Part shown: one piece after another, positions 6,360 to 27,882 of the stretch
How the letters are laid out: the number at the start of each line of letters is the position of its first letter
How positions within the stretch are numbered: position 1 is the stretch's first letter
Source of the DNA: Syntrophobacteraceae bacterium
GTDB taxonomy: Bacteria > Desulfobacterota > Syntrophobacteria > Syntrophobacterales > Syntrophobacteraceae
Direction of reading: 5' to 3'
Length of the DNA stretch: 32,000 bases
Assembly: GCA_031292215.1 (NCBI GenBank)
Contig: JARLHO010000148.1
Span: 1-32,000 of the forward strand
The notes under the pieces: model-generated
What the model saw: the letters and a program-made list of their open reading frames with translations, nothing else
Told to the model about the DNA's origin: nothing
Database searches by the model: none
Translations under genes and position numbers: made by a program

Positions 6360-6423
6360 GTGAATAGTGAGTAGTGAATAGTGAATAGAAAAAGCTCCAC
6401 TCACCCACTCACCGCTTCACTGC
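6360..6423. repeat. GTGAA/TCAC heptad-rich inverted repeat (copy 2)
   Basis: The left arm is gtgaat-agtgagt-agtgaat-agtgaat-ag (four AGTGAAT-type heptads), followed by aaaaag, then the right arm ctccactcacccactcaccgcttcactgc. It shares the '...gtgaa(c/t)AGAAAAA...' junction with copy 1 at 1315-1392. The right arm overlaps the last codons and stop of mksB. Confidence 0.55.
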
Positions 6424-13396: not shown

Positions 13397-13564
13397 ATTT
13401 CTAAATTACTGCTCATGCGCTTAGGGCAAACAATATTTAAGCGCCCCGGGGCAAATCGTGAACCCAACCCGGTATGAAGTTTTATTTGCGGTCAAATCGG
13501 CGAACAGGTCTTGGGGAAAGATTTGAGGTCACCAGCCGCTACGGGTCGCATAATCCTTCGAGTT

Positions 13565-13586
13565 GGCGCCGCCCGAAGGCGGCGCC
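13565..13586 (-). terminator. Stable GC hairpin 29 nt downstream of the Cys-rich gene
   Basis: ggcgccgcc-cgaa-ggcggcgcc (9-bp perfect stem, tetraloop). There is no U-tract, so intrinsic-terminator status is uncertain. Confidence 0.4.
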
Positions 13587-13614
13587 CGTCCTCCCCGCAT
13601 CCACACGCCCCGCT

Positions 13615-13887
13615 TTACACTATCTTGGTTGGAGGGTCCTGGTTCCCCATGAGCACGATATCTCTGGGGTTGCAAAGCTGGCTTGGAAGCTCCGCCACCC
13701 TTCCACAACCAACGCATACGAAATTGATCTTTTCAAGTTTTGGTTTACATATATGCCTTGGGTCCGTCGCCGGCTGTCCGCAGTGCTCACACACATAGGC
13801 GCTCTCAAATTCAATGGGATCGCACAGGTGTCCACCCTTTCCGGCCGCTTTTCCACAGGTCTTGCAGACTTGCGCATTCTTCTCCAT
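13615..13887 (-). CDS. Small Cys-rich protein with three tandem V-C-x2-C-G-x8-(H/Q)-(L/I)-C-x-P modules
   Basis: 90 aa. The modules are VCKTCGKAAGKGGHLCDP, VCEHCGQPATDPRHICKP and VCVGCGRVAELPSQLCNP. GAGGAG lies 8 nt upstream of the ATG (aagaGGAGaaatatcggATG). No family name recalled. Confidence 0.6.
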   Translation of the reverse strand: MEKNAQVCKTCGKAAGKGGHLCDPIEFESAYVCEHCGQPATDPRHICKPKLEKINFVCVGCGRVAELPSQLCNPRDIVLMGNQDPPTKIV

Positions 13888-14203
13888 CCGATATTTCTCC
13901 TCTTAAAGAGATAGCCCCATATAAACCGGCATCGTTTTCAATGCGGCCGGCGTCGGTCAGTCGAAAATATTCATTGAGTCACGCATCATGTTATGCACTC
14001 CGGAAGTGTGTGTCAATCCGGCTACCGCGGGGTTAAATCGGCAAGATGAAAGTCACCCTATACGTCAAGAAATCTATTGAAAAACCCACGCGTTGTACAA
14101 GGTGTCTCATCCAAAAGATACGACCGACGGGTGAGGTTTGGCCAAGGCCGCAGCGTAAAAGGCGCTTTCCATGTCGTTCGGTCGGCTTTTTGCAGATATT
14201 ATG

Positions 14204-14232
14204 GCCAATTAACCTTTCATTCGGGGTATAAT
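14204..14232 (+). promoter_or_regulatory. Possible sigma-70 promoter of tex (perfect -10 only)
   Basis: TATAAT at 14227-14232, 52 nt upstream of the tex ATG. The -35 region (gccaat, 17-bp spacing) is poor. Confidence 0.3.
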
Positions 14233-14284
14233 GCGCCGGGCGAGGAGTCGCCCAATCTATCGGACCAGGATTTGAAAGGAAGCC

Positions 14285-16555
14285 ATGAACCAGGATCACC
14301 TCGATTCCATTTCCCGTGAAATGGGTCTTAGGCCTTATCAGGTAAGCGCTACGGCGGCTCTTCTCGAAGAGGGCGCCACCGTGCCGTTTATCGCCAGGTA
14401 CCGCAAGGAAGCAACTGGAACCCTCGACGAGACCCTCGTTGCGGCGATTCGCGACCGGCTCGCCCAGTTGGATGTGCTCGAAAAACGAAGAAGCGCCGTC
14501 CTGAAATCCTTGCGCGAACAGGAAAAGCTAACCGATCGGTTGGAAGAGCGCATACTGCGGGCTGGAACTCTTACGGAAATCGAAGACATCTACCTGCCGT
14601 TTCGCCCCAAACGCCGCACGCGAGCGTCCATAGCCAGGGAAAAAGGGCTGGAGCCACTTGCGCTCGCCCTTTTCGAACAGGACCCCGCACGGGATCCGAT
14701 AGACCTTGCCCAAAGCTTTATAAGTCCGGAAAAGGAAGTAGCCTCGGAGGAAGACGCCCTCTGCGGGGCAAGGGACATCATCGCCGAATGGGTAAATGAA
14801 AACGGGGATTCCCGTTTGAAGCTGCGTTCGCTTTTTTTCACCAAAGGAATGCTGCGCTCCCGGGTCGTTCCCGGAAAAGAAGCCGAGGGGATGCAGTATC
14901 GAGACTACTTCGACAAGGAAGAGCCGATCGCTCGCGCCCCGTCTCACAGGGTGCTGGCCGTGCGAAGGGGAGAGCAGGAAGGTTTTCTTACGGTGCGCAT
15001 CGAACCTCCCGAAATGGAGGCCGTAAACATTCTCGAGGCCATTTTCGTAAAAAATGATTCGGCCTCCTCTGCCCAGGTCCGGGCCGCGGTCCGCGACAGC
15101 TATAAACGGCTGCTTTCGCCCTCTCTTGAAACGGAGATGAAAAACGAATCCAAACTCCGCGCCGATCGTGAAGCCATCCGGGTGTTTGCCGAAAATCTGC
15201 GCCATCTTTTGATGGCGCCGCCTCTTGGCTTTAAAAAAGTGATGGCGCTGGACCCGGGATTCCGCACCGGGTGCAAACTGGTTTGCCTGGACCCGCAGGG
15301 AAAGCTCGTCCATACAGAAACGATTTACCCACACCTTGGGGCAAAGGAGTCCGAGAAGGCCGGGGCGCGCATTCGCGCACTATCGCGGGAATTTTTAACC
15401 GAGGCCATCGCCATTGGAAACGGCACTGCCGGCCGGGAAACCGAGTCGTTTATCCGAAATCTGGGCCTTCCCCAAGAGATCCAGTTGATCATGGTCGATG
15501 AAAGCGGCGCTTCGATCTACTCTGCCTCAACTGTTGCGCGCGAGGAGTTTCCCGACTTCGATCTGACCGTTCGCGGGGCCGTATCGATAGGCAGGCGGCT
15601 AATCGATCCCCTGGCCGAGTTGGTCAAAATCGATCCCAAATCCATTGGAGTGGGACAGTACCAGCATGATGTGGATCAAACCGAGTTGAAAAAGGGGTTA
15701 GACGATGTCGTCGCCAGTTGTGTCAACGCGGTGGGAGTCGAGGTCAATTCGGCCAGCCCCCAGCTCCTCTCTTATATCTCGGGCCTTGGGCCTCAGCTTG
15801 CCGCAAATATCGTGTCCCACCGGGAAAAAAACGGGCCGTTTGGCAAAAGGGCGGAGTTAAAAAAAGTTACACGCCTTGGCCCCCGGGCCTTTGAACAATC
15901 GGCTGGTTTTTTGCGCATCTCCGATGGAAAAAACCCGCTGGATGCAAGCGCTGTCCACCCGGAATCCTACCCGATCGTCGAGAAAATGGCCACAGACCTT
16001 GGCTGTTCGGTTGCCGACCTGATACGGGAAGCCTCTTTCAGGGAAAAAATCGATCCCGCGCGGTATGTAACCGAAAAGGTCGGAATTCCCACCCTTGTCG
16101 ATATCTTGTCCGAGCTCGCAAAACCGGGAAGAGACCCCCGCAAATCCTTTGAGCCCTTCTCGTTTGCCGCGGGAGTGGAAAAACTGACCGACCTTGAGCG
16201 CGGCATGAAGCTGCCGGGAATTGTGACCAACGTGACCGCCTTCGGCGCCTTTGTCGACATCGGGGTTCACCGGGACGGCCTTGTCCACTTAAGCGAACTC
16301 TGCGATAGATTCGTAAGTGAGCCCCGCGAAGTGGTAAAGGTGCATCAAAAGGTAACGGTCACCATCCTCGAGGTGGACCTGGAAAGAGGGCGCGTATCGC
16401 TTTCCATGAAATCGGGAGCTGCCGAAACGGTCATGGCCGCGCCAAAACCCGAAAAGTCGGCGCCCGCAACCGGGCCGCAGCGCGCCAATCCGGTTGCCAA
16501 GCCAAAGACAGCCTTTAACAATCCTTTCGAAAACGCCTTTAAGAAACGGGATTGA
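14285..16555 (+). CDS. tex: Tex transcription accessory protein (YqgF/RuvC-like, HhH and S1 domains)
   Basis: 756 aa. The N-terminus ...QVSATAALLEEGATVPFIARYRKEATGTLDE is the Tex hallmark. The C-terminal S1 domain is GMKLPGIVTNVTAFGAFVDIGVHRDGLVHLSEL. AAGGAAG SD. Confidence 0.9.
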   Translation: MNQDHLDSISREMGLRPYQVSATAALLEEGATVPFIARYRKEATGTLDETLVAAIRDRLAQLDVLEKRRSAVLKSLREQEKLTDRLEERILRAGTLTEIEDIYLPFRPKRRTRASIAREKGLEPLALALFEQDPARDPIDLAQSFISPEKEVASEEDALCGARDIIAEWVNENGDSRLKLRSLFFTKGMLRSRVVPGKEAEGMQYRDYFDKEEPIARAPSHRVLAVRRGEQEGFLTVRIEPPEMEAVNILEAIFVKNDSASSAQVRAAVRDSYKRLLSPSLETEMKNESKLRADREAIRVFAENLRHLLMAPPLGFKKVMALDPGFRTGCKLVCLDPQGKLVHTETIYPHLGAKESEKAGARIRALSREFLTEAIAIGNGTAGRETESFIRNLGLPQEIQLIMVDESGASIYSASTVAREEFPDFDLTVRGAVSIGRRLIDPLAELVKIDPKSIGVGQYQHDVDQTELKKGLDDVVASCVNAVGVEVNSASPQLLSYISGLGPQLAANIVSHREKNGPFGKRAELKKVTRLGPRAFEQSAGFLRISDGKNPLDASAVHPESYPIVEKMATDLGCSVADLIREASFREKIDPARYVTEKVGIPTLVDILSELAKPGRDPRKSFEPFSFAAGVEKLTDLERGMKLPGIVTNVTAFGAFVDIGVHRDGLVHLSELCDRFVSEPREVVKVHQKVTVTILEVDLERGRVSLSMKSGAAETVMAAPKPEKSAPATGPQRANPVAKPKTAFNNPFENAFKKRD

Positions 16556-16577
16556 TCCAAAGCCCGAAGACTTTGCA

Positions 16578-18182
16578 ATGTTTTTGCTTCCGGCTCGCCT
16601 GGGTCGGGGCCACTGGCACAAGGGATTACAAGTGAGAAATATTTCCAATTCGCTGGCATTCAGGCTTCTTTGCCTCCTGCTGCTTGTAAGCGCTATTATC
16701 TTCATTTCCCTTACCTGGTTCATTGTACGGGCAGAGAAACGGCGCATTTCAGGGGAAGCCATACGCACCAACGAACTACTTCTGCGTTCCATGCGCCAGA
16801 GCATGTTGCTCAATCGCCAGAAGGATGTCGGCCACACGATAGATGCCTTGGGCAGCGGACCCGGAGTTTACGGAATAAGGATTTACGACAAAAACGGAAG
16901 GATCGCTTTCAGCGCGAAAAGGCAGGAAATAGGGCAAAAGGCCAACATGAAGGCCAAAGAGTGCATTGTATGCCATAGAGACGACAAACCGCTTGAAAAT
17001 ATTCCGAAAGCCGACCGGACTCGAAGTTTTGTCTCTCCGGACGGCTACCGGATACTCGGCGCTTTTGAAGCAATTCATAATGAACCCGCCTGCTCCGCGC
17101 CCGGATGCCACCCGCCTCCGTCCAGGCGGAAAATATTGGGCATGCTAGACTCCCAGTTTAACCTCGGAGGGGCGGGCCGCAATATTTTCAGCAGCCTCAA
17201 CCTCATGATCCTGTACTCCCTGGGCGCTATTTTGCTAATCGAGCTCTTTGCGGGACTTTTCATCATTCGCAACGTAAACATGCGCCTGGCAAAGCTCGCC
17301 GAAGGACCGCGCGAGGTCAAGTTGGGCAACCTGGATTTCAGCATTCAGATCGAAGGAAACGACGAGATAGCCGATCTGGCTCATTCGTTTAACAGCATGG
17401 TGGTAAGCCTCAAACGGGCCGAAGCTGAAAACAGGCAACTATCCCGCAGGGTGGTGCACAACGCGAAAATGGCTTCGATGGGTAAGCTCGCGGCCTCGGT
17501 GGCCCATGAAATCAACAACCCTCTTAGCGGCATCCTGGCCTACAGCCGGCTTATATCCCGCAAGATAAGCGAAGGACCCATGACGGAGGAAGACAGCAAG
17601 GAAGCCATGAAGCACTTCGAGGCGTGCATCGGCGAGATCAAGCGGTGCGGAAACATCGTCAGAAACCTGCTTCAGTTTTCCCGAAATTCCGAATCGGTCT
17701 TTGAAAAAGTTGACATACACAATATTATCGACAAAAGTCTTTTAATAACCAACCACCATTTCCAGATACATAACATAGAGACGATAACGGAGATGGAGGC
17801 GCGCGATCCGACGTTTTTCGGAAATGCAAACCAAATAGAGCAGGTACTGATCGCCCTGTTCATGAACGCTGTGGAAGCCATGCCCGGGGGGGGCGCCCTT
17901 ACCGTTTCGACCAGGGACGCCGCAGACCGCAACGCGCTGCTGGTGAGCGTAGCCGATAACGGCAAAGGAATCCCGCCTGAAATCCGGTCGAACATATTCG
18001 AGCCGTTTTTCACGACCAAGCAGGGGGGACATAGCGTTGGGATGGGCCTGTCGGTCGTCTACGGCATCATGCTTGGACACCGCGGGCAAATCGAGGTCGA
18101 ATCCGAACCGGAGCGCGGCACTACCTTCCTGCTCACATTCCCTAGAGAAATAGAGCCGAGCGGCGAGAACGCGCCAATATAG
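16578..18182 (+). CDS. Sensor histidine kinase (2 TM, periplasmic domain with CXXCH and CX4CH, HAMP, HisKA, HATPase)
   Basis: H-box [14 protein letters not shown]-box [10 protein letters not shown]-boxes DNGKGIP and GMGLSVV. HAMP follows TM2. The periplasmic segment carries CIVCH (nt 16962-16976) and CSAPGCH (nt 17091-17111). The start is uncertain (ATG 16578 or GTG 16633). The tracked ORF start at 16494 overlaps tex. Confidence 0.85.
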
Positions 18183-18237
18183 GGCGGGGCCGTCGTTTCC
18201 TGCTGTGGATATTTATTTGACTGGAGATCGGGAGAAG

Positions 18238-19584
18238 ATGACAGAACAGGTATCATTGCTCATTGTCGACGATGAACCGTCGGTCCGCGATTCCCTCATG
18301 CACTGGTTTCTGCAGGAGGGCTACCGTGTGGAGACCGCCGCCGAAGCGATGGAAGCCCTGGGGAGGATGCGCGATTCAAGTTTCGACATCATTCTTTTGG
18401 ACATCAAGATGCCCGGAATGGACGGAATCGAGCTTCAACGGCGGTTGAAGGAAATAGACAGCCAACTGGCCATCGTAATCATGACCGCCTATGCGTCGGT
18501 TGACACCGCCATTCAGGCGCTCAAACAGGGCGCCTACGACTACATAACCAAGCCGGTCGACCCCGACGATCTGAGCAGACTCATCCGCAACGCCGCCGTA
18601 CAGCGCCGGCTCATGCGCGAAAATCTCACCCTGAAAGAAGAAATCCGCTCCCTTGTTTCCACCAACCAGATCGTCGGAGAAAGCCACCAGATGCTGGAGG
18701 TGCTAAAGACCATCCAAACGGTGGCGCAAAGCGACGTCACCGTGATGATCCAGGGGGCTTCCGGCACGGGCAAGGAACTTGTCGCCAGGGCAATCCACTT
18801 CAACAGCAGGCGCAAGTATTTCCCGCTGATCACCCTGAATTGCGGCGCCATGACCGATACGCTGGTTGAATCCGAGCTTTTCGGCCACGAACGTGGAGCG
18901 TTCACCGGCGCGCAGTACAGGCGCAAAGGCAAACTGGAGCTCGCCCACAAAGGCGCCCTTTTCCTCGATGAAATAGGCAACATCGGCCCGAAGACCCAGA
19001 TGGATTTGCTGCGCGTAATCGAAACCAAGCGCTTCACCCGGGTTGGGGGAAACGAGGTCGTCCAGGCGGACTTTCGCATCATCTCGGCCACCAACAAGAA
19101 CCTCGAAGACGCGGTAAAGGAAGGAACGTTTAGAGAAGACCTCTACTACCGTTTGAATGTCTTCAATATCCAGTTGCCGTCTCTAAAGGAGCGGACCTCG
19201 GACATCCCGCTGCTTGTAAATCATTTCGTGGCAAAGTTCGCGACAGCCATGAACAAACCCTTCACGGGAGTCGACGCAGGGGCGATGGAGCTTCTCAAAC
19301 AAAAGAGCTGGCCGGGCAATGTGCGGGAACTCCAAAACGCCATGGAAAGGGCGGTGGTCCTTGGGAAGCCTCCCCTTATAACCGCCCCGGACCTTGCCGG
19401 CCTCGTCGAGCAAAGCCCCCTTTCGGAGGCCGACGAGGTGCTGCCGCTGGCCCAGATCGAAAAGCGCCACATTCAATTAGCGCTGGACAAGAGCGGGGGC
19501 AACGTGTCGCTTGCCGCTCAGTTGCTCCAGGTCGACAGGGCTACTGTCTACAACAAAATCAAAAAATACGGCCTGCTGTATTGA
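18238..19584 (+). CDS. Sigma-54-dependent response regulator (NtrC/AtoC/ZraR family)
   Basis: Receiver domain (LLIVDDEP...LLDIKMPGMDG), AAA+ domain with GASGTGKE Walker A and the sigma-54 contact loop ESELFGHERGAFTGA, and a C-terminal Fis-type HTH (NVSLAAQLLQVDRATVYNKIKKYGL). Start ATG 18238 (MTEQ) follows GGGAGAAG. Confidence 0.9.
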   Translation: MTEQVSLLIVDDEPSVRDSLMHWFLQEGYRVETAAEAMEALGRMRDSSFDIILLDIKMPGMDGIELQRRLKEIDSQLAIVIMTAYASVDTAIQALKQGAYDYITKPVDPDDLSRLIRNAAVQRRLMRENLTLKEEIRSLVSTNQIVGESHQMLEVLKTIQTVAQSDVTVMIQGASGTGKELVARAIHFNSRRKYFPLITLNCGAMTDTLVESELFGHERGAFTGAQYRRKGKLELAHKGALFLDEIGNIGPKTQMDLLRVIETKRFTRVGGNEVVQADFRIISATNKNLEDAVKEGTFREDLYYRLNVFNIQLPSLKERTSDIPLLVNHFVAKFATAMNKPFTGVDAGAMELLKQKSWPGNVRELQNAMERAVVLGKPPLITAPDLAGLVEQSPLSEADEVLPLAQIEKRHIQLALDKSGGNVSLAAQLLQVDRATVYNKIKKYGLLY

Positions 19585-19594
19585 ATGGAAAATA

Positions 19595-20125
19595 ATGATA
19601 CTGCTGATCGCCATTGATTTCCGGGGTGATATCGACTATCTCCGCGACCAGATCGGGACCCGCTTTCACTCAAAAGTGGACGTTTCCATAAACGGGTTGG
19701 ACCCCAAACCTTTCCTCAATCCCGACCGCAACCAGTTCAACTCCACTTCGATCATCCAACGATTGGAAAAGGACGCGCCTTCGACGGCATCGAAGGTGCT
19801 CGCCGTTACAAGCCTGGACCTGTATATCCCTATTTTGACCTTCGTATTCGGCGAGGCGCGTTTAAACGGCCAATGCGCGGTCGTTAGCTCCTACCGCCTC
19901 GACAACAGGTCCTACGGTCTGCCCGACAACCCTTCGCTTTTGCAGGAACGCCTCCTCAAGGAATCCATCCATGAGCTTGGCCACACCTTCGGTCTCATCC
20001 ACTGCCAGAACCCCGATTGCGTGATGAAATCCTCCACATACGTCGAAGAGATCGACTTCAAGAGCAGCCGGTTTTGCCTCGCGTGCATGGACTCCTGCGC
20101 CACAGCCCTGTCCCGGCTGAAATAA
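19595..20125 (+). CDS. Archaemetzincin-type zinc metalloprotease
   Basis: 176 aa from ATG 19595. HELGHTFGLIHCQNPDCVM (HExxHxxGxxHC) plus a C-terminal CxxC (FCLAC), as in the archaemetzincin (AmzA) family. It starts 11 nt after the regulator's stop. Confidence 0.8.
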   Translation: MILLIAIDFRGDIDYLRDQIGTRFHSKVDVSINGLDPKPFLNPDRNQFNSTSIIQRLEKDAPSTASKVLAVTSLDLYIPILTFVFGEARLNGQCAVVSSYRLDNRSYGLPDNPSLLQERLLKESIHELGHTFGLIHCQNPDCVMKSSTYVEEIDFKSSRFCLACMDSCATALSRLK

Positions 20126-20202
20126 CGGGCCGGCTGGGTTGTGGATCGGAGCGAACAGGGAACTTCGCAAAAACCCTCGAACCAACTCCGGTGGCATTCT
20201 AT

Positions 20203-20317
20203 TCTAATGCAGTTTTTCTGTTAAATCAAGTCGTTAGGATTTATTCCGATCAAACCCCAATAAGTCGTCGCCTCTGCGACTCTGCGGCAGCTTTCTTAAT
20301 TAGAACAAATTTAGCGT
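20203..20317 (+). repeat. Direct repeat unit A (115 bp)
   Basis: tctaatgcagtttttctgttaaatcaagtcgttagga...gatcaaaccccaataagtcgtcgcctctgcg[actctgc]g..ctttcttaattagaacaaatttagcgt. It aligns with unit B at 20942-21136 in the same orientation. Confidence 0.75.
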
Positions 20318-20526
20318 CCCTCCCCTCCTTCTCGGAGCAAAAGAGGCTGATTCGGCGCTGATACACCGAGCCGGCCACCGATCTGAGGGGCGGCTGCCAA
20401 CACATCCCGGGGGCCGGCAGCGAAGGGGAAAGAGGTGAGACATTTACCCCCCCTGTGCTGAAAAAACAGCAAAAAAACAAAGCCCGTCTTTTATTAACCA
20501 ACCGATTTCACGTGACATATTCGATT

Positions 20527-20606
20527 CACAGCGCCCAAATAACAGCCATGGAACAGCATGGGTAACAGCAGAGTTAACAGCACAATAACAGCAGTAATTT
20601 ACAGCA
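20527..20606 (+). repeat. Array 1: seven (A)ACAGC(A) motifs at 11-14 bp phasing
   Basis: ACAGC starts at 20528, 20542, 20553, 20565, 20577, 20588 and 20601 (intervals 14, 11, 12, 12, 11, 13). A given pentamer is expected about once per kb per strand. The array ends 5 nt before the SD GGAGGAG (20611-20617). Confidence 0.8.
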
Positions 20607-20627
20607 GATAGGAGGAGACGCAAATGA

Positions 20628-20638
20628 GGGGGGGGGGG
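20628..20638 (+). repeat. G11 homopolymer immediately after an SD-preceded ATG
   Basis: ggaggagacgcaaATGa-g11-ctt, with ATG at 20624. As written the ORF stops after 18 codons (TAG 20678-20680). Confidence 0.9.
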
Positions 20639-20787
20639 CTTAAAAGCGATTCAGTATTCAGTTTTAAAAGAACGTCGTAGCGAGCAGGGGAAAAGATATT
20701 CGCGGCGGGGCGATACCCCTGGTGCATCGGAGCCCTTTGGCCCGTTAATCCGCAAGGGATATAGCACGAAACTGATTAGCTCTGCAA

Positions 20788-20862
20788 AACGGCAACGAGA
20801 AACGGAAACGAGGAGCGGCAAATGAAACGGCGACCAGAAACGGCAAAAGTCCATGCGGCAAC
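20788..20862 (+). repeat. Array 2: six (A/G)(A/G)CGG(C/A)(A/G)A motifs at 12-15 bp phasing
   Basis: aacggcaa 20788, aacggaaa 20801, agcggcaa 20814, aacggcga 20826, aacggcaa 20839, tgcggcaa 20854 (intervals 13, 13, 12, 13, 15). The consensus AACGGCA differs from array 1 (AACAGCA) by one base. The SD GAGGAG (20810-20815) and ATG 20822 are embedded in it. Confidence 0.75.
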
Positions 20863-20941
20863 TGAGCAGGGATGATGGGAAGATGATGAAACGCAAGCCA
20901 TACAAAAGATTGAGGGGGTAAGAGGGCAGAGGTTATCCTGG

Positions 20942-21136
20942 TCTAATGCAGTCCTTCTGCTTAATCCAGCAGTCAGGGACCATCTGGAAACCCCGGCCGT
21001 GGGGGCGGTGAGCACAAGCATCACCATGTCCACCAAGAAATTTCCGGATGGACAGACTATTTGGGACTGGTCCCGGTCAAAGCCCGATAAGTCGTCGCCT
21101 CTGCGGTATTCTTTCTTTTTAGAACAAATTTACCGT
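20942..21136 (+). repeat. Direct repeat unit B (195 bp; the unit A sequence plus a ~96 bp internal insertion and a 7-bp deletion)
   Basis: 20942-20979 (tctaatgcagtccttctgcttaatccagcagtcaggga) matches the A 5' part. 21076-21136 (gtcaaagcccgataagtcgtcgcctctgcggtattctttctttttagaacaaatttaccgt) matches the A 3' part. Confidence 0.75.
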
Positions 21137-21548
21137 GAAAACCAACTCAGGAACCTTTGACAGGATGGACGGCAACCATGTATAGTAGCAGGGTGGTCGT
21201 TAGGCAACGTTTTCGCGTCGCCAGGTTAAATGGGTCTCCAATCGAACCGATTTCAATTTCTATTCTCTCTTTCTGGCTTTCCTCTTCAGGACCGATTTGC
21301 GACGCCGGCGGCGTCCATTTTGCCACGCGCCGGATTGTCGCCGCGCTGTAAAGATCCATTTCTACCGATTCGGCAAGATATCTGCCGGCGTGGTGTATTC
21401 TGGTCAATGGGAATTTATCCGGCAAGGAACTAACGGCTCTTTAGCCTGGCACACTGTACATGCTGACGGAGATCTGTGGACGGAGGGCGGGAAAAGACTT
21501 CCGGTGCGGATATGGTCTCCAATAGCCCAAAAATAAGGAGATGGACCG

Positions 21549-21896
21549 ATGTTGAAAAAAGCAATGGTATGCGGGGCGATTGTATGTTTGATGGCCGGTT
21601 ATGGATACGGCAGCGCGAAGGGGGCCGATTTTGCAAAAGGTAAAACGCTCTTTACTTCCCGGTGCGTTCTTTGCCACGGCGCCGAAGGCAAAGGCAACGG
21701 GCCCGCGGCCATGACGCTCAGCCCCAAGCCGGCCGATTTCACCAGCAAGACTTTTTGGCAGACCCCCGATATTGATCGGACAATGACCGATTTTATAAAA
21801 AACGGCAAGGGGCCCATGCCGGCTTTCCCCGATCTGTCGGCCGGCGATATTCAAGACGTCGTCCAGTATATCGAGCACGCTTTCAAACCCAAATGA
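21549..21896 (+). CDS. Periplasmic monohaem class-I-type cytochrome c
   Basis: 115 aa with a signal peptide, a single CVLCH, GKGNGPAA, and the distal Met region GKGPMPAF. AAGGAG lies 8 nt upstream. Confidence 0.8.
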   Translation: MLKKAMVCGAIVCLMAGYGYGSAKGADFAKGKTLFTSRCVLCHGAEGKGNGPAAMTLSPKPADFTSKTFWQTPDIDRTMTDFIKNGKGPMPAFPDLSAGDIQDVVQYIEHAFKPK

Positions 21897-21910
21897 ACGT
21901 TTTCCGGGCT

Positions 21911-21939
21911 GGAGGCGGCCATTCCTTTTGCCCGCCTCC
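21911..21939 (+). terminator. Hairpin after the monohaem cytochrome gene (possible attenuator or partial terminator)
   Basis: ggaggcgg (21911-21918) / ccgcctcc (21932-21939) with a 13-nt loop. It is followed by a C-run rather than a U-run. Confidence 0.3.
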
Positions 21940-22092
21940 CCCCCGCTTAGCCTACCCTGAAGCCGCCTTTTGCCGGTTTTTAAGGACGCCCCCGCCCCCC
22001 CCGGGAGGAGGTGAAGAGCTCGCGCAATGCGTGCCGCGCTAAAGCCCCGAGAGTCCGGTTACGTGCAGTTTTTCCCTTGGAGGAGGAGAGAA

Positions 22093-23466
22093 ATGGGCAT
22101 CAAACGGTTTAGCAAACTCATCTTCTTATTGGCCGTGGCTGGATTTCTTGGCGTCCTGACGGCAAGGCAAGCCCGGGCGGTGCCAAGTTTTGCGCGCCAG
22201 ACGGGCCAAGCCTGTTCCACATGCCATACTATGTTTCCCGAACTGACGCCATTCGGACGCACCTTTAAATTAACGGGCTACGTATTGAATAAGGACGGCG
22301 CCTCCCATCCGAGCGCGCCACCGGTGGCGGCCATGGTCCAACTCTCTCTCACGCACACCCGGCAGGCGCAGGCGCCCGGCTCTTTGCCGGATAACGGCTG
22401 GTCTCTTCACGCGCTTAGCTCCGAAAACGATGTGGCCGGCACGCCTCAGGCGGCCAGCCTGTTCTATGGAGGCCAGATATACGGCCATTGGGGCGCGCTC
22501 ATCCAGGGAACTTACTCAAACACCGATAACCGCTCATTTTTGGACATGTCGGATATTCGCTATGCGAACTCCACCTCGTTTTGCGGCAAGAACCTCATTT
22601 ACGGATTTACTTTCAATAACAACCCGACATCCGAAGACGTCTGGAACTCGACGCCGGCGTGGAGCTATCCGTATGGCTTTTCAGACGTCGGGCCAACTCC
22701 TGTTACGCCGGTCGCGGCCCCATTGATCTTTTCTCTATCCTCCTTGGTGGGAGGCGCGGGCGCTTACGTTTACTGGAACAACTGGCTCTACGTCGAGACC
22801 GCCGTCTACCGCACGTCCCTCGACGGGATCACCGCTCCATTCGGAGCGGGAGGTCATCCGCTCGGCGCTTATACCGACGGAGGCATCCCTTATTGGCGCC
22901 TGGCGCTCACACACCAATACGGCCCTCATTCGTTTGAAATCGGCACCTACGGGTTGGCGGCAAGAGTCTATTCCAGTTACCCCAGCCCACCTGCCGACAA
23001 TTACCGGGACGTGGCCTTCGATGCGCAATATCAGTATATTTTCGGCAATCAATCCTTTTCGGCGCAGACAACCTGGGTGCATGAAGACCAGGACCTTACC
23101 GCCAGCGTCAACTCAGGAATTCCTAGCAACCTCACCAACTATCTGGACACTTTCAAGATCAACGGCAACTACTATTACCGAACGAAACATTGCGGGCAAC
23201 TCGGAGGGACGCTTTCGTATTTTTCGACAACCGGAAGCGACGACGCCTCGCTCTACAGCACTGCCGCCTCCCCGAACGGCAATCCCAACAGTCACGGCGA
23301 AATACTCGAACTGGACTACATGCCGCCCTGGCACGACTACGGACCGGGCGGATTGGGTTTCGCCAAGTTCACGCTGCAGTATGTCATCTTCAACGAGTTT
23401 AACGGCAGCAGTAGCGGAGCATCCGCCAACAACACTCTCTATCTTCTCGCCTGGTTCATGTTCTGA
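22093..23466 (+). CDS. Fused monohaem cytochrome / outer-membrane beta-barrel protein (Cyc2-like architecture)
   Basis: 457 aa from ATG 22093 (GGAGGAGGAG SD). Signal peptide ...LTARQARA. It then reads VPSFARQTGQACSTCHTMFPELTPFGRTFKLTGY (one CXXCH), followed by ~400 aa of alternating aromatic/polar strands rich in Y/G/N/S/T, ending ...LYLLAWFMF (terminal Phe, an OMP signature). Confidence 0.7.
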   Translation: MGIKRFSKLIFLLAVAGFLGVLTARQARAVPSFARQTGQACSTCHTMFPELTPFGRTFKLTGYVLNKDGASHPSAPPVAAMVQLSLTHTRQAQAPGSLPDNGWSLHALSSENDVAGTPQAASLFYGGQIYGHWGALIQGTYSNTDNRSFLDMSDIRYANSTSFCGKNLIYGFTFNNNPTSEDVWNSTPAWSYPYGFSDVGPTPVTPVAAPLIFSLSSLVGGAGAYVYWNNWLYVETAVYRTSLDGITAPFGAGGHPLGAYTDGGIPYWRLALTHQYGPHSFEIGTYGLAARVYSSYPSPPADNYRDVAFDAQYQYIFGNQSFSAQTTWVHEDQDLTASVNSGIPSNLTNYLDTFKINGNYYYRTKHCGQLGGTLSYFSTTGSDDASLYSTAASPNGNPNSHGEILELDYMPPWHDYGPGGLGFAKFTLQYVIFNEFNGSSSGASANNTLYLLAWFMF

Positions 23467-23593
23467 TGGGGCGCGGGAGGGGGACTGTTTCCTATTGGCC
23501 GGGAGGGCGGCCGGGGAGTCAAGGGGGCAACATTGGCGCAGTGACTCCGAAAAAAGAGTTGCGGGCGATAACTTTTCAAGTCAAGGCTAAGAT

Positions 23594-24331
23594 GTGAACG
23601 AGCATAAATGGATGTGGGCCGTATGTTGTACGGTTTTCCTCGTGCTAAGCGGTTCGCCGGCGCATGCCCAACAGGGGCGCATTGCTTGCATTACCTGCCA
23701 TGAAGCTTTGGGCGGATCATTGGCCAAGCCTATCACCGACTGGAGGGGCTCCATTCATTACCAGCACGGAATTACCTGCGACCGCTGCCACGGCGGCAAC
23801 GCCAAGGTAGAGGTGGGCAACGTGCTGCAACTCTCCGGCCCCCAGTTTGCGGCCATACAATCCGGGGCCATGTCGAAGGCAAACGGCTTTGTCGGCAAAC
23901 CCTCGGGCAAGCAACTGTTCGCTATGTGCGCAAAGTGCCATCCCGCTTCGGTGGGCAGGTACGCGGGCAGCGTCATGGGCATCGCCTATCTCCAAAAAAA
24001 GGGTGGGCCTTCCTGCATCGCTTGCCACCAACCCCATCGCAACGTCATCCCCGAGGTCCCCCAAGTCTGTTCGAGGTGCCATAAGGATACTACCGGATTC
24101 ACGCAGATCGACCCGATGAACGTTACGGATGCGTCCATAACCCAGCTTTCCAATATCCGCATCCAACTGGCCCGGGAGAAGACTCAGGGCGCCAGACCGT
24201 CGCTGGCCCCACGGTTTGCGGGAGAAATTGGTTCCTTCCAGGTAGGGTTGCTGGCATTCGGGGCGATCATTTTTCTTTTCCTGATCGGCTATGTGGTTTA
24301 TGCAATTTTTGAGAAGGGGGATGAAAAATGA
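23594..24331 (+). CDS. Pentahaem c-type cytochrome with a C-terminal membrane anchor
   Basis: Five CXXCH motifs: CITCH, CDRCH, CAKCH, CIACH, CSRCH. N-terminal signal, and a C-terminal TM helix VGLLAFGAIIFLFLIGYVVYAIF. The start is GTG 23594 or ATG 23612. Confidence 0.85.
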   Translation: MNEHKWMWAVCCTVFLVLSGSPAHAQQGRIACITCHEALGGSLAKPITDWRGSIHYQHGITCDRCHGGNAKVEVGNVLQLSGPQFAAIQSGAMSKANGFVGKPSGKQLFAMCAKCHPASVGRYAGSVMGIAYLQKKGGPSCIACHQPHRNVIPEVPQVCSRCHKDTTGFTQIDPMNVTDASITQLSNIRIQLAREKTQGARPSLAPRFAGEIGSFQVGLLAFGAIIFLFLIGYVVYAIFEKGDEK

Positions 24332-24591
24332 GTTTCGAGGTCCTTCGGGAAAAGAAGCCCTCCTGTTCGACGATCTCCATGGTCCTGGTCGTTTTTCTGT
24401 CGGCGCTTCTTTTCGGCATGGCGGCGGCTTTCGCCTACTTGCTGTTATCCGGGATGGGCAATGACTATCAACTCGGCGCCCTGTTGGCGCTCGAGTTCTT
24501 TGTGGCCGGCGTGCTGCTCGTTTTTTACGCGAAAAATTTTTCCTCGTTTCGAGAGGTCTCCGAGGAGCGCGATGAGGGGGTGTTATGGTAG
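24328..24591 (+). CDS. Small 2-TM membrane protein, translationally coupled on both sides
   Basis: 87 aa with two hydrophobic helices (ISMVLVVFLSALLFGMAAAFAYLLL; LGALLALEFFVAGVLLVFY). Its ATG overlaps the upstream stop (ATGA), and its end overlaps the Rieske start by 7 nt. Confidence 0.55.
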   Translation: MSFEVLREKKPSCSTISMVLVVFLSALLFGMAAAFAYLLLSGMGNDYQLGALLALEFFVAGVLLVFYAKNFSSFREVSEERDEGVLW

Positions 24592-25196
24592 AGACGAACT
24601 CCGAGGGCAAGGAGGGGAAGGTAACGCGCAGGCAATTTGCCCGAGGCTTTCTCCTGGCCGCCGTAGCAGGGGCTTTCGGCTCTCTTTTGTCGCTTCTCAA
24701 AGTGTTGTCGCCCCCGGCAAGCAAGGGCGGCGGCTATGTGGCCACCGTGGCGTTGGGGGACCTTCTGGTCTACGCCAAGGGCAGCAGGCAGGGAAGTTTG
24801 TTAAAGGCTTCGGATTTCCAGGTCGGGGACGCAGTCCTTGCTTATCCTCAGGGCAAAACCGGCAACGAGGCCAATCTCGTTCAACTCATTCGCATGAAGG
24901 AGAAGGAGTTCAAGCCGCCGACCCGCCTGGAGCTAACCGACCAGGGGTTTGTAGCCTACAGCGCCATCTGCACTCATCTCGGCTGCACGGTCTCGTGGAT
25001 GAAAAACGAAAAGGATCCCGGGGCCTCTTACACCGAATGTTTCTGTCATAACAGCATCTTCAATCCGGCGCGGGGGGCCAGGGTCATCGGAGGGCCCGCA
25101 CCGATCCCGCTGGCCCAGATCGGGGTCAAGGTATCCAAGGACGGAACCCTTGTTTTTACCAGCGGCTTTTCCGGCCCTGTCGGCCCGCAGGTTTGA
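24585..25196 (+). CDS. Rieske [2Fe-2S] subunit of a cytochrome bc-type complex
   Basis: Tat-like RRQFARGFLLAAVAGAFG, then CTHLGCTVSW and CFCHNSIF (CxHxGC...CxCH). Confidence 0.9.
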   Translation: MVETNSEGKEGKVTRRQFARGFLLAAVAGAFGSLLSLLKVLSPPASKGGGYVATVALGDLLVYAKGSRQGSLLKASDFQVGDAVLAYPQGKTGNEANLVQLIRMKEKEFKPPTRLELTDQGFVAYSAICTHLGCTVSWMKNEKDPGASYTECFCHNSIFNPARGARVIGGPAPIPLAQIGVKVSKDGTLVFTSGFSGPVGPQV

Positions 25197-25213
25197 CGTC
25201 GGAGGAAACGGCG

Positions 25214-26473
25214 ATGATTTCTAAATGGTTTGATGAACGGCTGGAGCTGAAAAAATTCAAGGAAAAATTCCTGACCAAAGCCTTTCCGACGCACCCGACG
25301 TTTCTTTTCGGAGAGATAGCGCTTTTTTCCTTTATAACGCTCGTGATCACCGGGATTTTTCTTGGCTTTCTCTACGAACCTTCGATCGATAAGGTGTCGC
25401 TTTTCGGCGCCATGGTTCCGGCCGCCTATGCGAGCGTGGTCAGGATCGACCTTTTGCCGCTGGGCATGATCATCCGGCGCATCCATCACTGGTCGGCCAT
25501 GATCATGATCGCCGCAATTGTGACCCATCTTGGGCGAATTTATTTCACATCGGCATACCGCAAGCCGCGGGAAATCAATTGGCTGATAGGCCTCGCCCTG
25601 CTCGCGGTAACCCTCGGGGCGGCCCTTACCGGCTATCTTCTGCCCTACAGCCAATTTTCGGTAACCGCCACCTCCATCGCCTACTATATTTCGAAGTCGG
25701 TCCCATGGATCGGGGGGTGGCTATCACGGCTTCTTTTCGCCGGGGAATTCCCGGCCGCAGGGACTGTCCCAAGGTTTTTCTTCCTGCACGTTATGCTGGT
25801 TCCCCTCGCGCTCCTGGGGCTGATCGGGCTGCACCTGCTGGTCCTGGTAAAGCACAAGCACACCGAACCTGCCGCCAACAGGAAACGGACAGACGCCCGG
25901 GGGGGGCGCAGGCTGATCGGGATCCCGGTCTGGCCGGAACAGAGCTTCATTAGCGTTTCACTCTTTTTTTTCCTGCTGTCCGTGGTGGTCCTTATGGCCA
26001 CCTATATCCCGTTAAACCCTATCGAAGCGTACGGCCCGCCTTCGCCGGCGACTCCGGTCATGCGGCCCGACTGGTATTTTCTCCCCATATACGGTTTTCT
26101 GAAGTTGATTCCAGGCAACCTCTCATTTTCCATCGCCGGGGGGAAATTCACCCCGGAGGCAATCGGCGGGGTCCTTTTCCCCGGCCTGCTGGCTCTGATC
26201 CTGGTTGCGATTCCGTTTCTCGACCGGGTGAGCACGCCGCGCAACTATATTGAAAATCCCCTCCACCGCCCTGTCATGACGTCTTTGGGCATTGCCGGCG
26301 GAGCATTTCTTTTCATGACGACCCTATCCGGATACATCGATGTTCTCCACATCGCCCCCTCGTCGATGGCGATATACGTCCTGGTTGTGACGGCTGCGGC
26401 CTGGGGGATCTCCTACCTGCTGCTGCGTCTTTACTGTCGAGCAGGAAAGAAAGGCGACCATGTCAAGACTTGA
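25214..26473 (+). CDS. Cytochrome b (fused b6 + subunit-IV-like, ~419 aa)
   Basis: His pairs in RRIHHWSAMIMIAAIVTHLGRIY and FFFLHVMLVPLALLGLIGLHLL. Qo-site motif PDWYFLPIYGFLK. GGAGGA lies 7 nt before ATG 25214. Confidence 0.9.
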   Translation: MISKWFDERLELKKFKEKFLTKAFPTHPTFLFGEIALFSFITLVITGIFLGFLYEPSIDKVSLFGAMVPAAYASVVRIDLLPLGMIIRRIHHWSAMIMIAAIVTHLGRIYFTSAYRKPREINWLIGLALLAVTLGAALTGYLLPYSQFSVTATSIAYYISKSVPWIGGWLSRLLFAGEFPAAGTVPRFFFLHVMLVPLALLGLIGLHLLVLVKHKHTEPAANRKRTDARGGRRLIGIPVWPEQSFISVSLFFFLLSVVVLMATYIPLNPIEAYGPPSPATPVMRPDWYFLPIYGFLKLIPGNLSFSIAGGKFTPEAIGGVLFPGLLALILVAIPFLDRVSTPRNYIENPLHRPVMTSLGIAGGAFLFMTTLSGYIDVLHIAPSSMAIYVLVVTAAAWGISYLLLRLYCRAGKKGDHVKT

Positions 26474-27215
26474 GCAGGTCCTGGGCTGCTTTATCGTGTT
26501 GTGCGGGGCGTTGCTTTTCGCTCACTCCGCCATGTCCGCCTCCAATCCGGCGCAGCGAAATTCCTGCGTCCAATGCCATTCCAAACTTCCAGCGAGCAGT
26601 TTTTACGGTGTTAAATCACACAGTTGGACAGGTTCGGTCCATCAGATGCACGGCGTAACGTGCGACAAGTGCCACGGAGGTAATCCCGCGGCCGCCCAAG
26701 AAAACCAGGCACATATCGGCATGCTTGGCTCCAGCGATCCGCACAGCACGATCTATTTCAAAAACATCCCCGCGACCTGCGGCAAATGCCACGGGGCCGA
26801 ATTCTACAAATTCACCCAGAGTGTCCATTACCAAATGCTCGAATCGACGGGCAAGGGTCCCGAATGCGTCACCTGTCACGGTTCCATGGTGACCAAGGTT
26901 TTGAGGCCCGATGACATGGTCGCCGTGTGCGCAAGGTGCCACAATGAAAGAATGGCCATTGCGCCATATGTGCCGCAGAAGGCCAAAGCGGTCCTGTTGC
27001 TGCTTGGGGAGAGCAAGGCCCTGCTGGCCGACCAGGAGCGTCTCCATCCCGCTCCGAGGAGCGCCGGGACGGCCCAGTCCCTGGACGAGGCAGGGATAGC
27101 GCTGCACAATGCCAAACTGGACTGGCACAAATTCGACCTGGACGCCATTACAAAGTACCTGCTGGAATTTTATGACACCGTCGAAAAATTGCCCCGGGCC
27201 CCTGCCAGCCATTAA
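26460..27215 (+). CDS. Pentahaem c-type cytochrome (paralogue of 23594-24331, no C-terminal anchor)
   Basis: CVQCH, CDKCH, CGKCH, CVTCH, CARCH. It shares GS(I/V)Hxx HG(I/V)TCD(R/K)CHGGN and the motif order with the first pentahaem. It overlaps the cytochrome b end by 14 nt. Confidence 0.85.
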   Translation: MSRLEQVLGCFIVLCGALLFAHSAMSASNPAQRNSCVQCHSKLPASSFYGVKSHSWTGSVHQMHGVTCDKCHGGNPAAAQENQAHIGMLGSSDPHSTIYFKNIPATCGKCHGAEFYKFTQSVHYQMLESTGKGPECVTCHGSMVTKVLRPDDMVAVCARCHNERMAIAPYVPQKAKAVLLLLGESKALLADQERLHPAPRSAGTAQSLDEAGIALHNAKLDWHKFDLDAITKYLLEFYDTVEKLPRAPASH

Positions 27216-27240
27216 TTTACCAGTTCTCCGATCCATGACT

Positions 27241-27275
27241 GGGGCGGCGTGCCTCGCGGCATTCCGCCCCTTATT
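27241..27275 (+). terminator. Probable terminator of the cytochrome cluster
   Basis: ggggcggcgtgcc-tcgc-ggcattccgcccc (7+4 bp stem with a 2-nt internal mismatch) followed by ttatt. It starts 26 nt after the stop. Confidence 0.4.
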
Positions 27276-27882
27276 CCGGCTGCCATCATCCGCCCTTACC
27301 ATCTCCCGCAGGATCGCAAACCGCTAATGCCTCCTCACTGCGTTTCATCCATCCGGCCTTCCAGCCGGATGTGGTGAACCGAAGGATTAGTGGAGCGAAG
27401 CGCAACCCATCAGCTCAATCTCGAATGCAAATTTGTTTCACACCGACGAGTAGGCTTTTGACAACAATCGATAAGATGTAAAAGTTTTGTTTTCAATCTA
27501 TCGGATATTTCCCCGAACCGACATACTTTCACGGTATTACACCGAATTTCCGGTGTGACCTAATGCCCTCCCTTTGGCGATTTGTACCGATTCTTATCCG
27601 GGATGCCGATAATCGCGCCTTCCGGGACCGCCGGACTCAGTGCGCAGAGGCCCGATTTGAAAACATTGCGGTGTCACGAAAAGGAGCGGGTGCCCCTCGC
27701 AAGCCGCAGAAACGGGAGCGTCTGCCGATGGGGAAGCGGAAAAGGGACAAGTGAACATCTTGCCTTTTGTTACCAACGTGTAATGTGAGTGCAATGATCT
27801 TGTAATGCTCCGGTCATTCCGAGGCAATGTTCCAGGCGCGAGAATGCGACACCGCAGGAGAGCTCGTTTGGAAAGTATTCAA

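Follow-up and report, generated by a model that had tools for sequence, protein, structure and literature searches.

A Cyc2-family cytochrome-porin gene linked to a pentahaem Rieske/cytochrome b module in Syntrophobacteraceae: a candidate electron path between extracellular iron and menaquinone

Results

Seven genes arranged as two modules

The locus described here lies in a window of 32,000 nucleotides (nt; positions 1 to 32,000 of contig JARLHO010000148.1, assembly GCA_031292215.1) from an uncultured bacterium of peat or wetland type in the Syntrophobacteraceae, an anaerobic lineage, and it places a gene of the outer-membrane cytochrome-porin family Cyc2 beside the genes of a Rieske/cytochrome b complex. 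Seven open reading frames (ORFs), characterised from an ORF list and by profile searches, all lie on the + strand and occupy positions 21549-27215, about 5.7 kb. We refer to them as g1 to g7. With the two hairpins of the locus, they are as follows (aa, amino acids).

21549-21896, + strand: g1, 115 aa, CVLCH at residue 39, periplasmic monohaem class I cytochrome c
21911-21939, + strand: stem-loop 3′ of g1, -26.9 kcal/mol, z = -4.07 against shuffled sequences, without a U tract
22093-23466, + strand: g2, 457 aa, single CSTCH at residue 41, C-terminal Phe, Cyc2-family cytochrome-porin by sequence criteria
23594-24331, + strand: g3, 245 aa, five CxxCH motifs, exactly 10 His, hydrophobic segment at 210-242, pentahaem cytochrome c
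24328-24591, + strand: g4, 87 aa, two hydrophobic segments (two predicted transmembrane helices, 2-TM)
24585-25196, + strand: g5, membrane-anchored Rieske [2Fe-2S] protein with a twin-arginine translocation (Tat) signal; TRRQFAR, CTHLGC and CFCHNS motifs
25214-26473, + strand: g6, 419 aa, fused cytochrome b (Cytochrome_B and Cytochrom_B_C), PDWY motif
26460-27215, + strand: g7, 251 aa, five CxxCH motifs, second pentahaem cytochrome c
27241-27270, + strand: GC-rich hairpin 3′ of g7, from the fold of 27216-27330

A first-pass annotation of the same DNA had proposed seven same-strand genes with these coordinates, overlaps and motifs, and ORF and motif checks bore out all of them; the hairpin that it had placed after g1 likewise proved real, by its folding energy and by comparison with shuffles. 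The last five genes are closely joined, with an ATGA overlap at 24328-24331 (g3/g4), a 7-nt overlap at 24585-24591 (g4/g5), a 17-nt gap between 25196 and 25214 (g5/g6) and a 14-nt overlap at 26460-26473 (g6/g7), and overlaps of this kind are expected for translational coupling. The whole had also been described as one tight cluster. The adjacency stands; because the arrangement is inverted in some relatives and a strong terminator separates the two parts in relative L087, the locus is better described as two modules, g1-g2 and g3-g7, than as a single operon. A further claim, that every layer from the cell surface to the (mena)quinone pool is encoded contiguously, agrees with what we found, in that the haem-porin, the class I cytochrome c, ten c-haems, the Rieske protein and the dihaem cytochrome b are all present. 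Judging from these sequences, we consider it on balance probable that the two linked modules let electrons pass between the menaquinone pool and iron dissolved outside the cell, or a similar small redox species.

The cytochrome-porin and its cytochrome partners

The g2 product is 100% identical to the NCBI protein P4L43_18160 of a Syntrophobacteraceae metagenome-assembled genome (MAG). Its start at 22093 is favoured over an upstream ATG at 22027 both by homologues and by a GGAGGAGGAGAGAA ribosome-binding site. Profile searches gave no match for g2 in Pfam or NCBIfam, and we compared it with the Cyc2 criteria of Keffer et al. 2021 (PMC8406198), namely a signal peptide, a single CxxCH, the motif AxPxFAR[Q/K][T/Y] just upstream of it (given there as unique to Cyc2), PxL four residues after the CxxCH, no fewer than 365 aa in all and a 16-strand barrel like that of OprP/OprO. 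First, sequence inspection of g2 revealed a signal peptide, with hydrophobic residues 3-27 followed by ARA|VP. Second, A29-V-P-S-F-A-R-Q-T37 is followed by GQA and then by C41, the first residue of the only CxxCH (C41-STCH), which lies near the N-terminus. Third, the haem motif continues as H45-TMF-P49-E-L51. Across 37 aligned g2 homologues from several phyla, conservation is complete at P31, F33, Q36, P49, E50 and L51 and reaches at least 90% at A29 and R35. Fourth, an AlphaFold2 (AF2) model of the 457-aa protein, built on the homologue alignment, has 16 strands (predicted local distance difference test, pLDDT, 67; predicted TM score, pTM, 0.70); its haem domain is disordered, as expected when the cofactor is absent. 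When this model was compared with the PDB by Foldseek, all matches listed were beta-barrel porins or channels, including AlgE, OmpF-type porins, chitoporin, OprP (2o4v, TM 0.46/0.50) and OprO (4rjx). The first-pass annotation had called this porin Cyc2-like and had made its reading depend on the barrel fold and family of the 22093-23466 protein. With the motif present, a 16-strand model and fold matches to barrels only, that reading came through unharmed and can be made firmer: by the published sequence criteria, g2 is a member of the Cyc2 family.

Homologues of g2 are numerous (more than 4112 at E <=1e-3 among 8000 candidates) and their genes are found in at least 596 species-level genomes; the few with a source name mostly go by 'hypothetical protein', now and then by 'cytochrome C'. 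Relatives at 43% identity occur in Paraburkholderia and Trinickia, which fits the Cyc2 homologues mentioned for Burkholderia (PMC8406198).

The g1 product has a signal peptide and a GPMP Met-ligand motif and matches Cytochrome_CBB3 (3.9e-14) and Cytochrom_C (3.6e-12) in Pfam; in NCBIfam it weakly resembles one QcrC domain (35 bits against a cut-off of 200). We surveyed the neighbourhoods of Cyc2 homologues at 81 loci from 80 species genomes. A homologue of g1 lies directly upstream of the Cyc2 homologue at 23 of these loci, and, L087 apart, it does so in all close relatives whose locus is complete. More broadly, a class I cytochrome c adjoins Cyc2 at 60 of the 81, either as a monohaem protein upstream (the same 23) or as a c4-like dihaem protein downstream (37, mostly proteobacterial), and such a neighbour has already been read as a Cyc1-like partner (PMC10715153). 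A membrane protein in which DUF2231 is fused to a C-terminal cytochrome c domain (DUF2231::cytochrome c) is encoded directly downstream of Cyc2 at seven of the 81 loci, as well as in L162 and L163, and its carriers are relatives that do not have the Rieske/cytochrome b module. Examples are located as follows.

L162, 10423-11172: DUF2231::cytochrome c fusion
L163, 7452-8201 and 10413-11162: DUF2231::cytochrome c fusions
L010, 11442-12197: DUF2231::cytochrome c fusion

This fusion, for which we found no description in the literature examined, could serve Cyc2 as an alternative partner in the inner membrane. Overall, the pattern seems to be one of Cyc2 with a class I cytochrome c and an interchangeable inward partner.

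A Rieske/cytochrome b module with two pentahaem cytochromes

A scan of metagenome contigs with g6 yielded 74 loci, and the order and orientation g3-g4-g5-g6-g7 were the same in every contig long enough; the complete five-gene module is present in at least 40 metagenome contigs, mostly without Cyc2. Relatives of g6 at 71-87% identity come from MAGs of Syntrophobacteraceae, other 'Deltaproteobacteria', Acidobacteriota and Nitrospirota, and none of the 120 matches listed bears the name of an isolate.

The two catalytic subunits are readily recognised. In g5, TRRQFAR lies at residue 14 and the cluster ligands are CTHLGC at 129 and CFCHNS at 152, with a Pfam Rieske match at 2e-6; its closest solved relative, aligned over the whole soluble domain, is the Rieske protein of the Thermus thermophilus quinol:cytochrome c reductase (3fou/1nyk, E 2e-23). 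In g6, two His pairs as for haems bL and bH (H-x13-H at residue 91 and H-x14-H at 192), together with PDWY at 285 in the Qo position, mark a cytochrome b, in which a b6-like N-terminal half is joined to a subunit-IV-like C-terminal half (Pfam Cytochrom_B_N_2 at 8e-50, Cytochrome_B and Cytochrom_B_C). Among solved structures it is closest to actinobacterial QcrB, from menaquinol:cytochrome c reductase supercomplexes (E about 1e-58). The actinobacterial and Thermus enzymes use menaquinol, in agreement with the PDWY motif of g6.

The c subunits are less conventional. It had been noted at first pass that the cluster contains no c1/f-type subunit, and this is true by homology: no subunit matched a cytochrome c1 or cytochrome f family in Pfam or NCBIfam, and the c subunits are instead two pentahaem proteins, which places the module in the broader Rieske/cytochrome b class rather than among bc1/b6f complexes proper. 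The first of them, g3, is always the first gene of the module; its product has a signal peptide and a C-terminal membrane anchor, the topology of c1/f, and probably stands in for that subunit. The second, g7, has a signal peptide, no membrane anchor and a non-haem C-terminal tail of ~80 aa. All five CxxCH motifs are kept in 40 of 40 full-length g3 orthologues and in 48 of 48 g7 orthologues. A comparison of the two profiles with hhalign indicates that g3 and g7 are paralogous across all five haem sites (probability 99.7%, E 6e-27); sequence and profile searches for solved relatives of either gave only matches with E >0.01.

The small protein g4 is kept in all complete modules at 45-75% identity. 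It weakly matches positions 23-97 of the NCBIfam model bc1_QcrA_actin (E 0.013) and Pfam DUF7318 (E 6e-4), and it may be the counterpart of the additional helices at the N-terminus of actinobacterial QcrA or of the small FbcX subunit of Thermus. The idea that g4 and g5 together form a split QcrA, which stems from the match at E 0.013, we keep as no more than a possibility, as a PDB search with the concatenated sequence aligned the Rieske domain only.

Taken from its sequences, then, the g3-g7 module is a widespread, self-contained Rieske/cytochrome b complex of menaquinol type, and the literature searched held no account of one like it, with five genes and two paralogous pentahaem cytochromes. 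Outside the window's clade (defined as Cyc2 at least 63% and cytochrome b at least 81% identical), the genes next to the module are variable, with none common to more than four loci, and we looked among these neighbours for a consistent alternative partner without finding one. ORFs that appear metal-related by eye, from translations only (MerR/MerT/MerP/MerA-like, CrcB-like and heavy-metal P-type ATPases), lie near the module in L092, L098, L106 and L111 (upstream of it) and in L100, L107, L131 and L132, which hints that the module travels with metal-related islands.

Conservation of the linkage

Within the window's clade, the same seven-gene order is found in the independent contigs L082/L083, L084 and L161, and also, with a duplication, in L160, where a tandem c-Cyc2-c-Cyc2 array lies directly upstream of the five-gene module (8455-16719). 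The contigs L082/L083 share with the window the upstream genes for a kinase, a sigma-54 regulator and a Peptidase_M54 protein (described below) and differ in the downstream genes, while L084 and L161 carry the seven genes in different surroundings. In L085 and L086 the module is inverted, and the two units diverge from a common intergenic region. Gene order in relatives had been proposed as a test of the cluster; it is thus kept in L082/L083, L084, L160 and L161, and rearranged, yet still adjacent, in L085 and L086.

In other lineages, non-orthologous Rieske/cytochrome b genes (about 30% identity to g5/g6), with other c subunits, stand beside Cyc2. In L020 (Desulfobaccales), the order is c, Cyc2, Rieske, cytochrome b and a C-anchored pentahaem cytochrome; in L078 (Ignavibacteriaceae) and L039 (Bacteroidales), Cyc2 and c lie beside a Rieske gene and a fusion of cytochrome b with a dihaem c; and in L003/L004, from another Syntrophobacteraceae lineage, Cyc2 and a cupredoxin are followed by Rieske, cytochrome b and an octahaem cytochrome. 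Cyc2 and Rieske/cytochrome b genes lie within about 2.5 kb of each other at five of the 81 loci; by our own estimate, random placement of one to three such loci in a genome of 3-6 Mb would yield ~0.2. We argue that the adjacency of Cyc2 and the module is selected and is more than chance, because it is stable through inversion, duplication and changed flanks, because it has originated independently elsewhere, and because another redox partner usually follows Cyc2 where Rieske/cytochrome b genes are absent.

Some of these relatives have further redox genes at the locus. The cupredoxin of L003 (9122-9760) and L004 (9128-9787) is a plastocyanin/azurin-family copper protein with a CarboxypepD_reg-like domain, reminiscent of rusticyanin in Acidithiobacillus. 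In L085, 1-6 kb from Cyc2 and on the opposite strand (10600-15490), lie genes for an MtrB_PioB porin and for three cytochromes, one decahaem-like, one a monohaem cytochrome c and one of the NapC/NirT family; this set has the composition of the Mto pathway of iron oxidisers, which makes the region an extracellular-electron-transfer island.

Several observations weigh against the proposed electron path. Among the 24 module contigs with more than 3 kb of upstream sequence, 18 have no Cyc2 there and six do; most of the 81 Cyc2 loci have no Rieske/cytochrome b genes within 10 kb, and this is true even of the Cyc2 loci of L002 (62% identical) and L017 (59%). Since each module is mostly found alone, neither needs the other. 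The claim that the Rieske/cytochrome b complex is part of a Cyc2 conduit must therefore be divided: the adjacency is conserved, and a dedication of the complex to Cyc2 is contradicted by those 18 contigs. To these points are added the stable hairpin after g1, the 127-nt gap between g2 and g3, the strong terminator between the modules of L087, and the AF2 model of g2, which is of only moderate confidence and leaves the haem domain unmodelled.

Such data are what one would see if the two units were independent neighbours, with g3-g7 acting as a general complex III and the c/Cyc2 pair as a separate iron-handling or detoxifying unit that shares with it at most a cytochrome c pool. The module's variable neighbourhoods and the hairpins in the intergenic gaps suit this explanation, and the Rieske/cytochrome b::dihaem fusion of L039/L078 might itself be a housekeeping complex III. 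It sits less well with an adjacency that outlasts inversion, duplication and flank change in the window's clade and that arose separately with at least three other kinds of Rieske/cytochrome b, far above the random expectation, and we regard it as a credible but unlikely account of the locus.

Transcription and neighbouring genes

The stem-loop at 21911-21939 may stabilise the mRNA or act in attenuation, rather than being a canonical terminator; stem-loops of different sequence are seen by eye at the same position after g1 in L082 and L084. The hairpin at 27241-27270 is the probable 3′ end of the transcription unit, and the next gene begins more than 500 bases downstream of g7. The inverted arrangements in relatives imply that co-transcription of the two modules is not obligatory.

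Upstream of g1 lie two regulatory genes.

16494-18182, + strand: HAMP histidine kinase (Pfam HAMP, HisKA, HATPase_c)
18205-19584, + strand: sigma-54-dependent response regulator, assigned from its own translation and the Pfam calls of orthologues

This pair also lies upstream in L082/L083 and in L085, and the two proteins are candidate regulators of the locus, although their membership in it is uncertain. They are followed, within 16494-20125, by a gene for an archaemetzincin-like Peptidase_M54 protein (HELGHTFGLIHC) that is syntenic in L082/L083. Sigma-54-type activators are also encoded beside the Cyc2 loci of L081 and L160; in the latter, genes for a PAS/sigma-54 activator and for PspA precede the tandem c/Cyc2 pair.

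A search for sigma-54 promoters (TGGCAC-N5-TTGCW, at most two mismatches) gave 11 matches in the window against 13.5 expected, with none upstream of g1, g2 or g3, and when the intergenic regions of the window, L082, L084, L085, L086 and L087 were searched with the core constrained, none came up on the right strand. The TGGCAC at 21447 was rejected by eye as a -24/-12 promoter on account of its GG-N12-GC spacing. Alignment of the sequences upstream of g1, made for a conserved promoter, found only the ribosome-binding site and start region in common, and Rfam gave nothing at the gathering threshold on the whole window and nothing at E <=1 on 20100-22100.

Between the Peptidase_M54-like gene and g1 there are 1.4 kb (20126-21548) that have no credible ORF; the corresponding stretch in the syntenic L082 is only 354 bp. 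This sequence contains two copies of a ~120-nt repeat (20196-20317 and 20935-21136, 74-82% identical), tandem arrays of five TAACAGCA-like units at 20540-20593 and five AAACGG-like units at 20787-20849, a run of 11 G at 20628-20638 and, at 21157-21186, a site close to the sigma-70 consensus. An insertion, a regulatory array and an unknown RNA are all conceivable explanations for it. Elsewhere in the window, a MukF/MukE/MukB-type condensin operon (Pfam MukB, MukE/MksE and MukF) occupies 5243-12781 on the - strand and is unrelated to the conduit; after it comes a 385-aa ORF that has no Pfam match.

Discussion

Relation to known systems

With which characterised systems can this locus be compared? 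Like the Cyc2/Cyc1 (c4)/rusticyanin/PetABC bc1 chain of Acidithiobacillus ferrooxidans and like the neutrophilic iron oxidisers, it encodes a fused monohaem cytochrome-porin with AxPxFAR[Q/K][T/Y]...CxxCH...PxL (PMC8406198, PMC7029218, PMC10654088, PMC10715153), and, as in the Acidithiobacillus chain, whose use in both directions is documented, a class I cytochrome c adjoins Cyc2. In contrast, cyc2 and the Rieske/cytochrome b genes form one cluster here, whereas rus and pet are separate operons in Acidithiobacillus and the components are stated to be unclustered in Leptospirillum. Unlike the Acidithiobacillus chain, the present complex is of menaquinol type (PDWY; QcrB-like and Thermus-like), two pentahaem cytochromes replace cytochrome c1, the cluster has neither oxidase nor rusticyanin, and the host lineage is anaerobic.

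For the concept as such there is a published analogue, with a porin that is not Cyc2. The ext cluster of Geobacter sulfurreducens (extHIJKLMNOPQS, GSU2940-GSU2930) likewise combines a porin-like protein, multihaem cytochromes, a Rieske protein and a cytochrome b in one conserved cluster (PMC5877670, PMC2825233); its porin-like protein resembles phosphate porins, one of its cytochromes is a pentahaem protein, and ExtO, ExtP and ExtQ are the Rieske protein, the cytochrome b and a small membrane protein. However, ExtI lacks a haem domain and does not belong to Cyc2, the b6-type ExtP is short, and ext carries many more haems (5, 12, 10 and 2-4). The NCBIfam scores also keep the two apart (g6, 155.8 bits against 290 for ExtP; g7, 31.1 against 800 for ExtM), as does the haem motif of g2. 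The ext phenotype concerns selenite and tellurite reduction.

This last point raises the question of whether a real conduit might act on something other than iron, such as manganese, selenite, tellurite or small organic redox shuttles. The ext cluster, the only porin and Rieske/cytochrome b cluster that has been studied, affects selenite and tellurite and not Fe(III) reduction (PMC5877670); the subfamily of g2 (38-48% identity across phyla, including aerobic Paraburkholderia) occurs in many lineages that are not known for iron metabolism; and Cyc2 clusters are so divergent (17-30% identity between them, PMC8406198) that function may differ among them. Yet the cytochrome-domain motif of the Fe(II)-oxidising Cyc2 proteins is fully conserved in g2, all three characterised members act on iron (PMC8406198, PMC7029218), and g2 has no similarity to Ext proteins in NCBIfam. 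A substrate other than iron seems to us quite improbable.

The inner-membrane module has parallels of its own. In the anammox complexes Kuste4569-4574 and Kustd1480-1485, a membrane-anchored multihaem cytochrome c replaces c1/f on a Rieske/cytochrome b core (PMC12954380), and a tetrahaem-type complex has been reported in other Deltaproteobacteria (PMC2825233). The present module differs from the anammox complexes in its two paralogous pentahaem proteins, its fused rather than split cytochrome b, its extra 2-TM subunit and the absence of an NAD(P) oxidoreductase subunit. It resembles actinobacterial QcrABC and the Thermus thermophilus enzyme in that these supply the closest solved relatives of g6 (QcrB) and g5 (the Thermus Rieske protein). 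The Thermus fbcCXFB operon, attributed to Mooser et al. 2005-2006, reportedly has the order c, small TM protein, Rieske, cytochrome b, as in g3-g6. Nevertheless, g6 scores 302 bits against 500 for bc1_QcrB_actin and the QcrA model gives 93.6 against 275 (NCBIfam NF050120, NF050121), the g3-g7 module has no QcrC-type subunit, and, unlike in the Qcr and Thermus enzymes, the c subunit is pentahaem rather than mono- or dihaem and a second pentahaem subunit is added.

Finally, as in MtrCAB, MtoAB and PioAB, electron transfer across the outer membrane would be tied to a quinol-oxidising or quinone-reducing inner-membrane protein, and the ten c-haems of g3 and g7, taken as two NrfB-like pentahaem units, recall MtrA, which is likewise built of two modules (weak DmsE-family matches). 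Here, a single haem is fused to a 16-strand barrel, with no PF11854 match and no 26-strand barrel of the MtrB/PioB kind (a true MtrB_PioB gene was found among the relatives only in L085), and the inner-membrane partner is a Rieske/cytochrome b complex and not a NapC/NirT-type CymA.

Proposed path and its direction

How might electrons pass through such a system? In the path that we propose, the first module would consist of Cyc2 in the outer membrane, its single c-haem domain fused to the 16-strand barrel, and of g1 as a soluble periplasmic shuttle. In the second, the Tat-exported Rieske protein, the fused cytochrome b and the 2-TM subunit would form the core, with the g3 pentahaem protein in the place of c1/f and g7 extending the haem chain into the periplasm. 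The two modules would exchange electrons through g1 and g7. We infer both this exchange and the direction of flow; as the first-pass annotation rightly cautioned, direction cannot be read from sequence. In the forward direction, menaquinol would be oxidised by the Rieske/cytochrome b complex in a proton-motive Q cycle, and electrons would pass through g3 and g7 to g1, Cyc2 and soluble Fe(III), giving a high-yield respiratory branch for soluble or complexed Fe(III). The chain would be reversible in principle.

Provided that the conduit is real, we lean towards this forward, quinol-oxidising direction, for four reasons. First, the cluster has no terminal oxidase or reductase, and uptake would push all flux uphill at a cost in energy. 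Second, cyc2 in known iron oxidisers clusters with the downhill branch and not with the uphill bc1 operon. Third, Cyc2 isoforms of acidithiobacilli have been implicated in Fe(III) reduction (PMC10715153). Fourth, the host lineage is anaerobic, and g2 homologues occur in MAGs recovered from peat, from permafrost, from the soil of wetlands and from a ferruginous lake.

The opposite flow deserves serious consideration. Cyc2 would then oxidise dissolved Fe(II), g1 would carry the electrons inward, and the complex would run in reverse on the proton-motive force and reduce menaquinone for biosynthetic power, while a terminal reductase or oxidase encoded elsewhere took most of the cytochrome c electrons. 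Every Cyc2 tested biochemically is an Fe(II) oxidase (the haem of the PV-1 protein lies at +208 mV; PMC8406198), the family is the standard marker of iron oxidisers (PMC8406198, PMC7029218), and published pathway models include reverse flow through bc1 (PMC7029218). Two relatives point the same way: in L085 a cluster resembling mtoA/mtoB/mtoD/cymA lies beside the locus, and in L003/L004 the cupredoxin between Cyc2 and Rieske/cytochrome b echoes the Cyc2-rusticyanin-bc1 chain. The Fe(II) oxidase activity and these relatives tell against outward flow. On the other hand, uptake is hard to reconcile with the clustering habit of cyc2 in known iron oxidisers and with the lack of an oxidase or reductase in or beside the cluster, and no acceptor is evident that would make Fe(II) oxidation pay for anaerobic Syntrophobacteraceae, for which an uphill push would be costly. 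We judge uptake to be unlikely, though far from negligible.

A more specific version of the forward path can be put forward only tentatively, as one that we think somewhat doubtful: Cyc2 would here serve as the terminal reductase of an energy-conserving anaerobic branch and not in Fe(II) oxidation. Menaquinol, for example from the succinate step of syntrophic propionate oxidation, would be oxidised by the Q cycle, and its electrons would travel along the ten-haem wire of g3 and g7 and by way of the monohaem carrier to Cyc2, which in acidic wetlands rich in iron would pass them on to Fe(III), either soluble or held in organic complexes.

Significance of the linkage

The components are all of known kinds, and the pairing of Cyc2 with a class I cytochrome c is already described (PMC10715153). 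Three things appear to be new: a Cyc2-type cytochrome-porin physically linked to a Rieske/cytochrome b complex, a linkage that recurs in several lineages; the five-gene module with its paralogous pentahaem pair; and a Cyc2/Rieske/cytochrome b set in a family of anaerobic syntrophs and sulfate reducers. Full-text literature searches, which were not exhaustive, found no description of cyc2 adjoining Rieske/cytochrome b genes.

Cyc2 is the most used genetic marker for microbial iron oxidation, and what it works with in the periplasm and the inner membrane is mostly a matter of inference, as the genes concerned are usually scattered. [quoted passage not shown] The locus makes both those partners and the direction of electron transfer directly testable. 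It also allows a role of Cyc2 as an Fe(III) reductase in anaerobes to be asked about, and such a role would change how cyc2 abundance is read in metagenomes from peat, permafrost and sediment. If Cyc2 does act as a reductase here, its position beside four unrelated kinds of Rieske/cytochrome b would mark a widespread and unrecognised dissimilatory iron reduction, and counts of cyc2 in metagenomes would be misassigning iron reducers as oxidisers.

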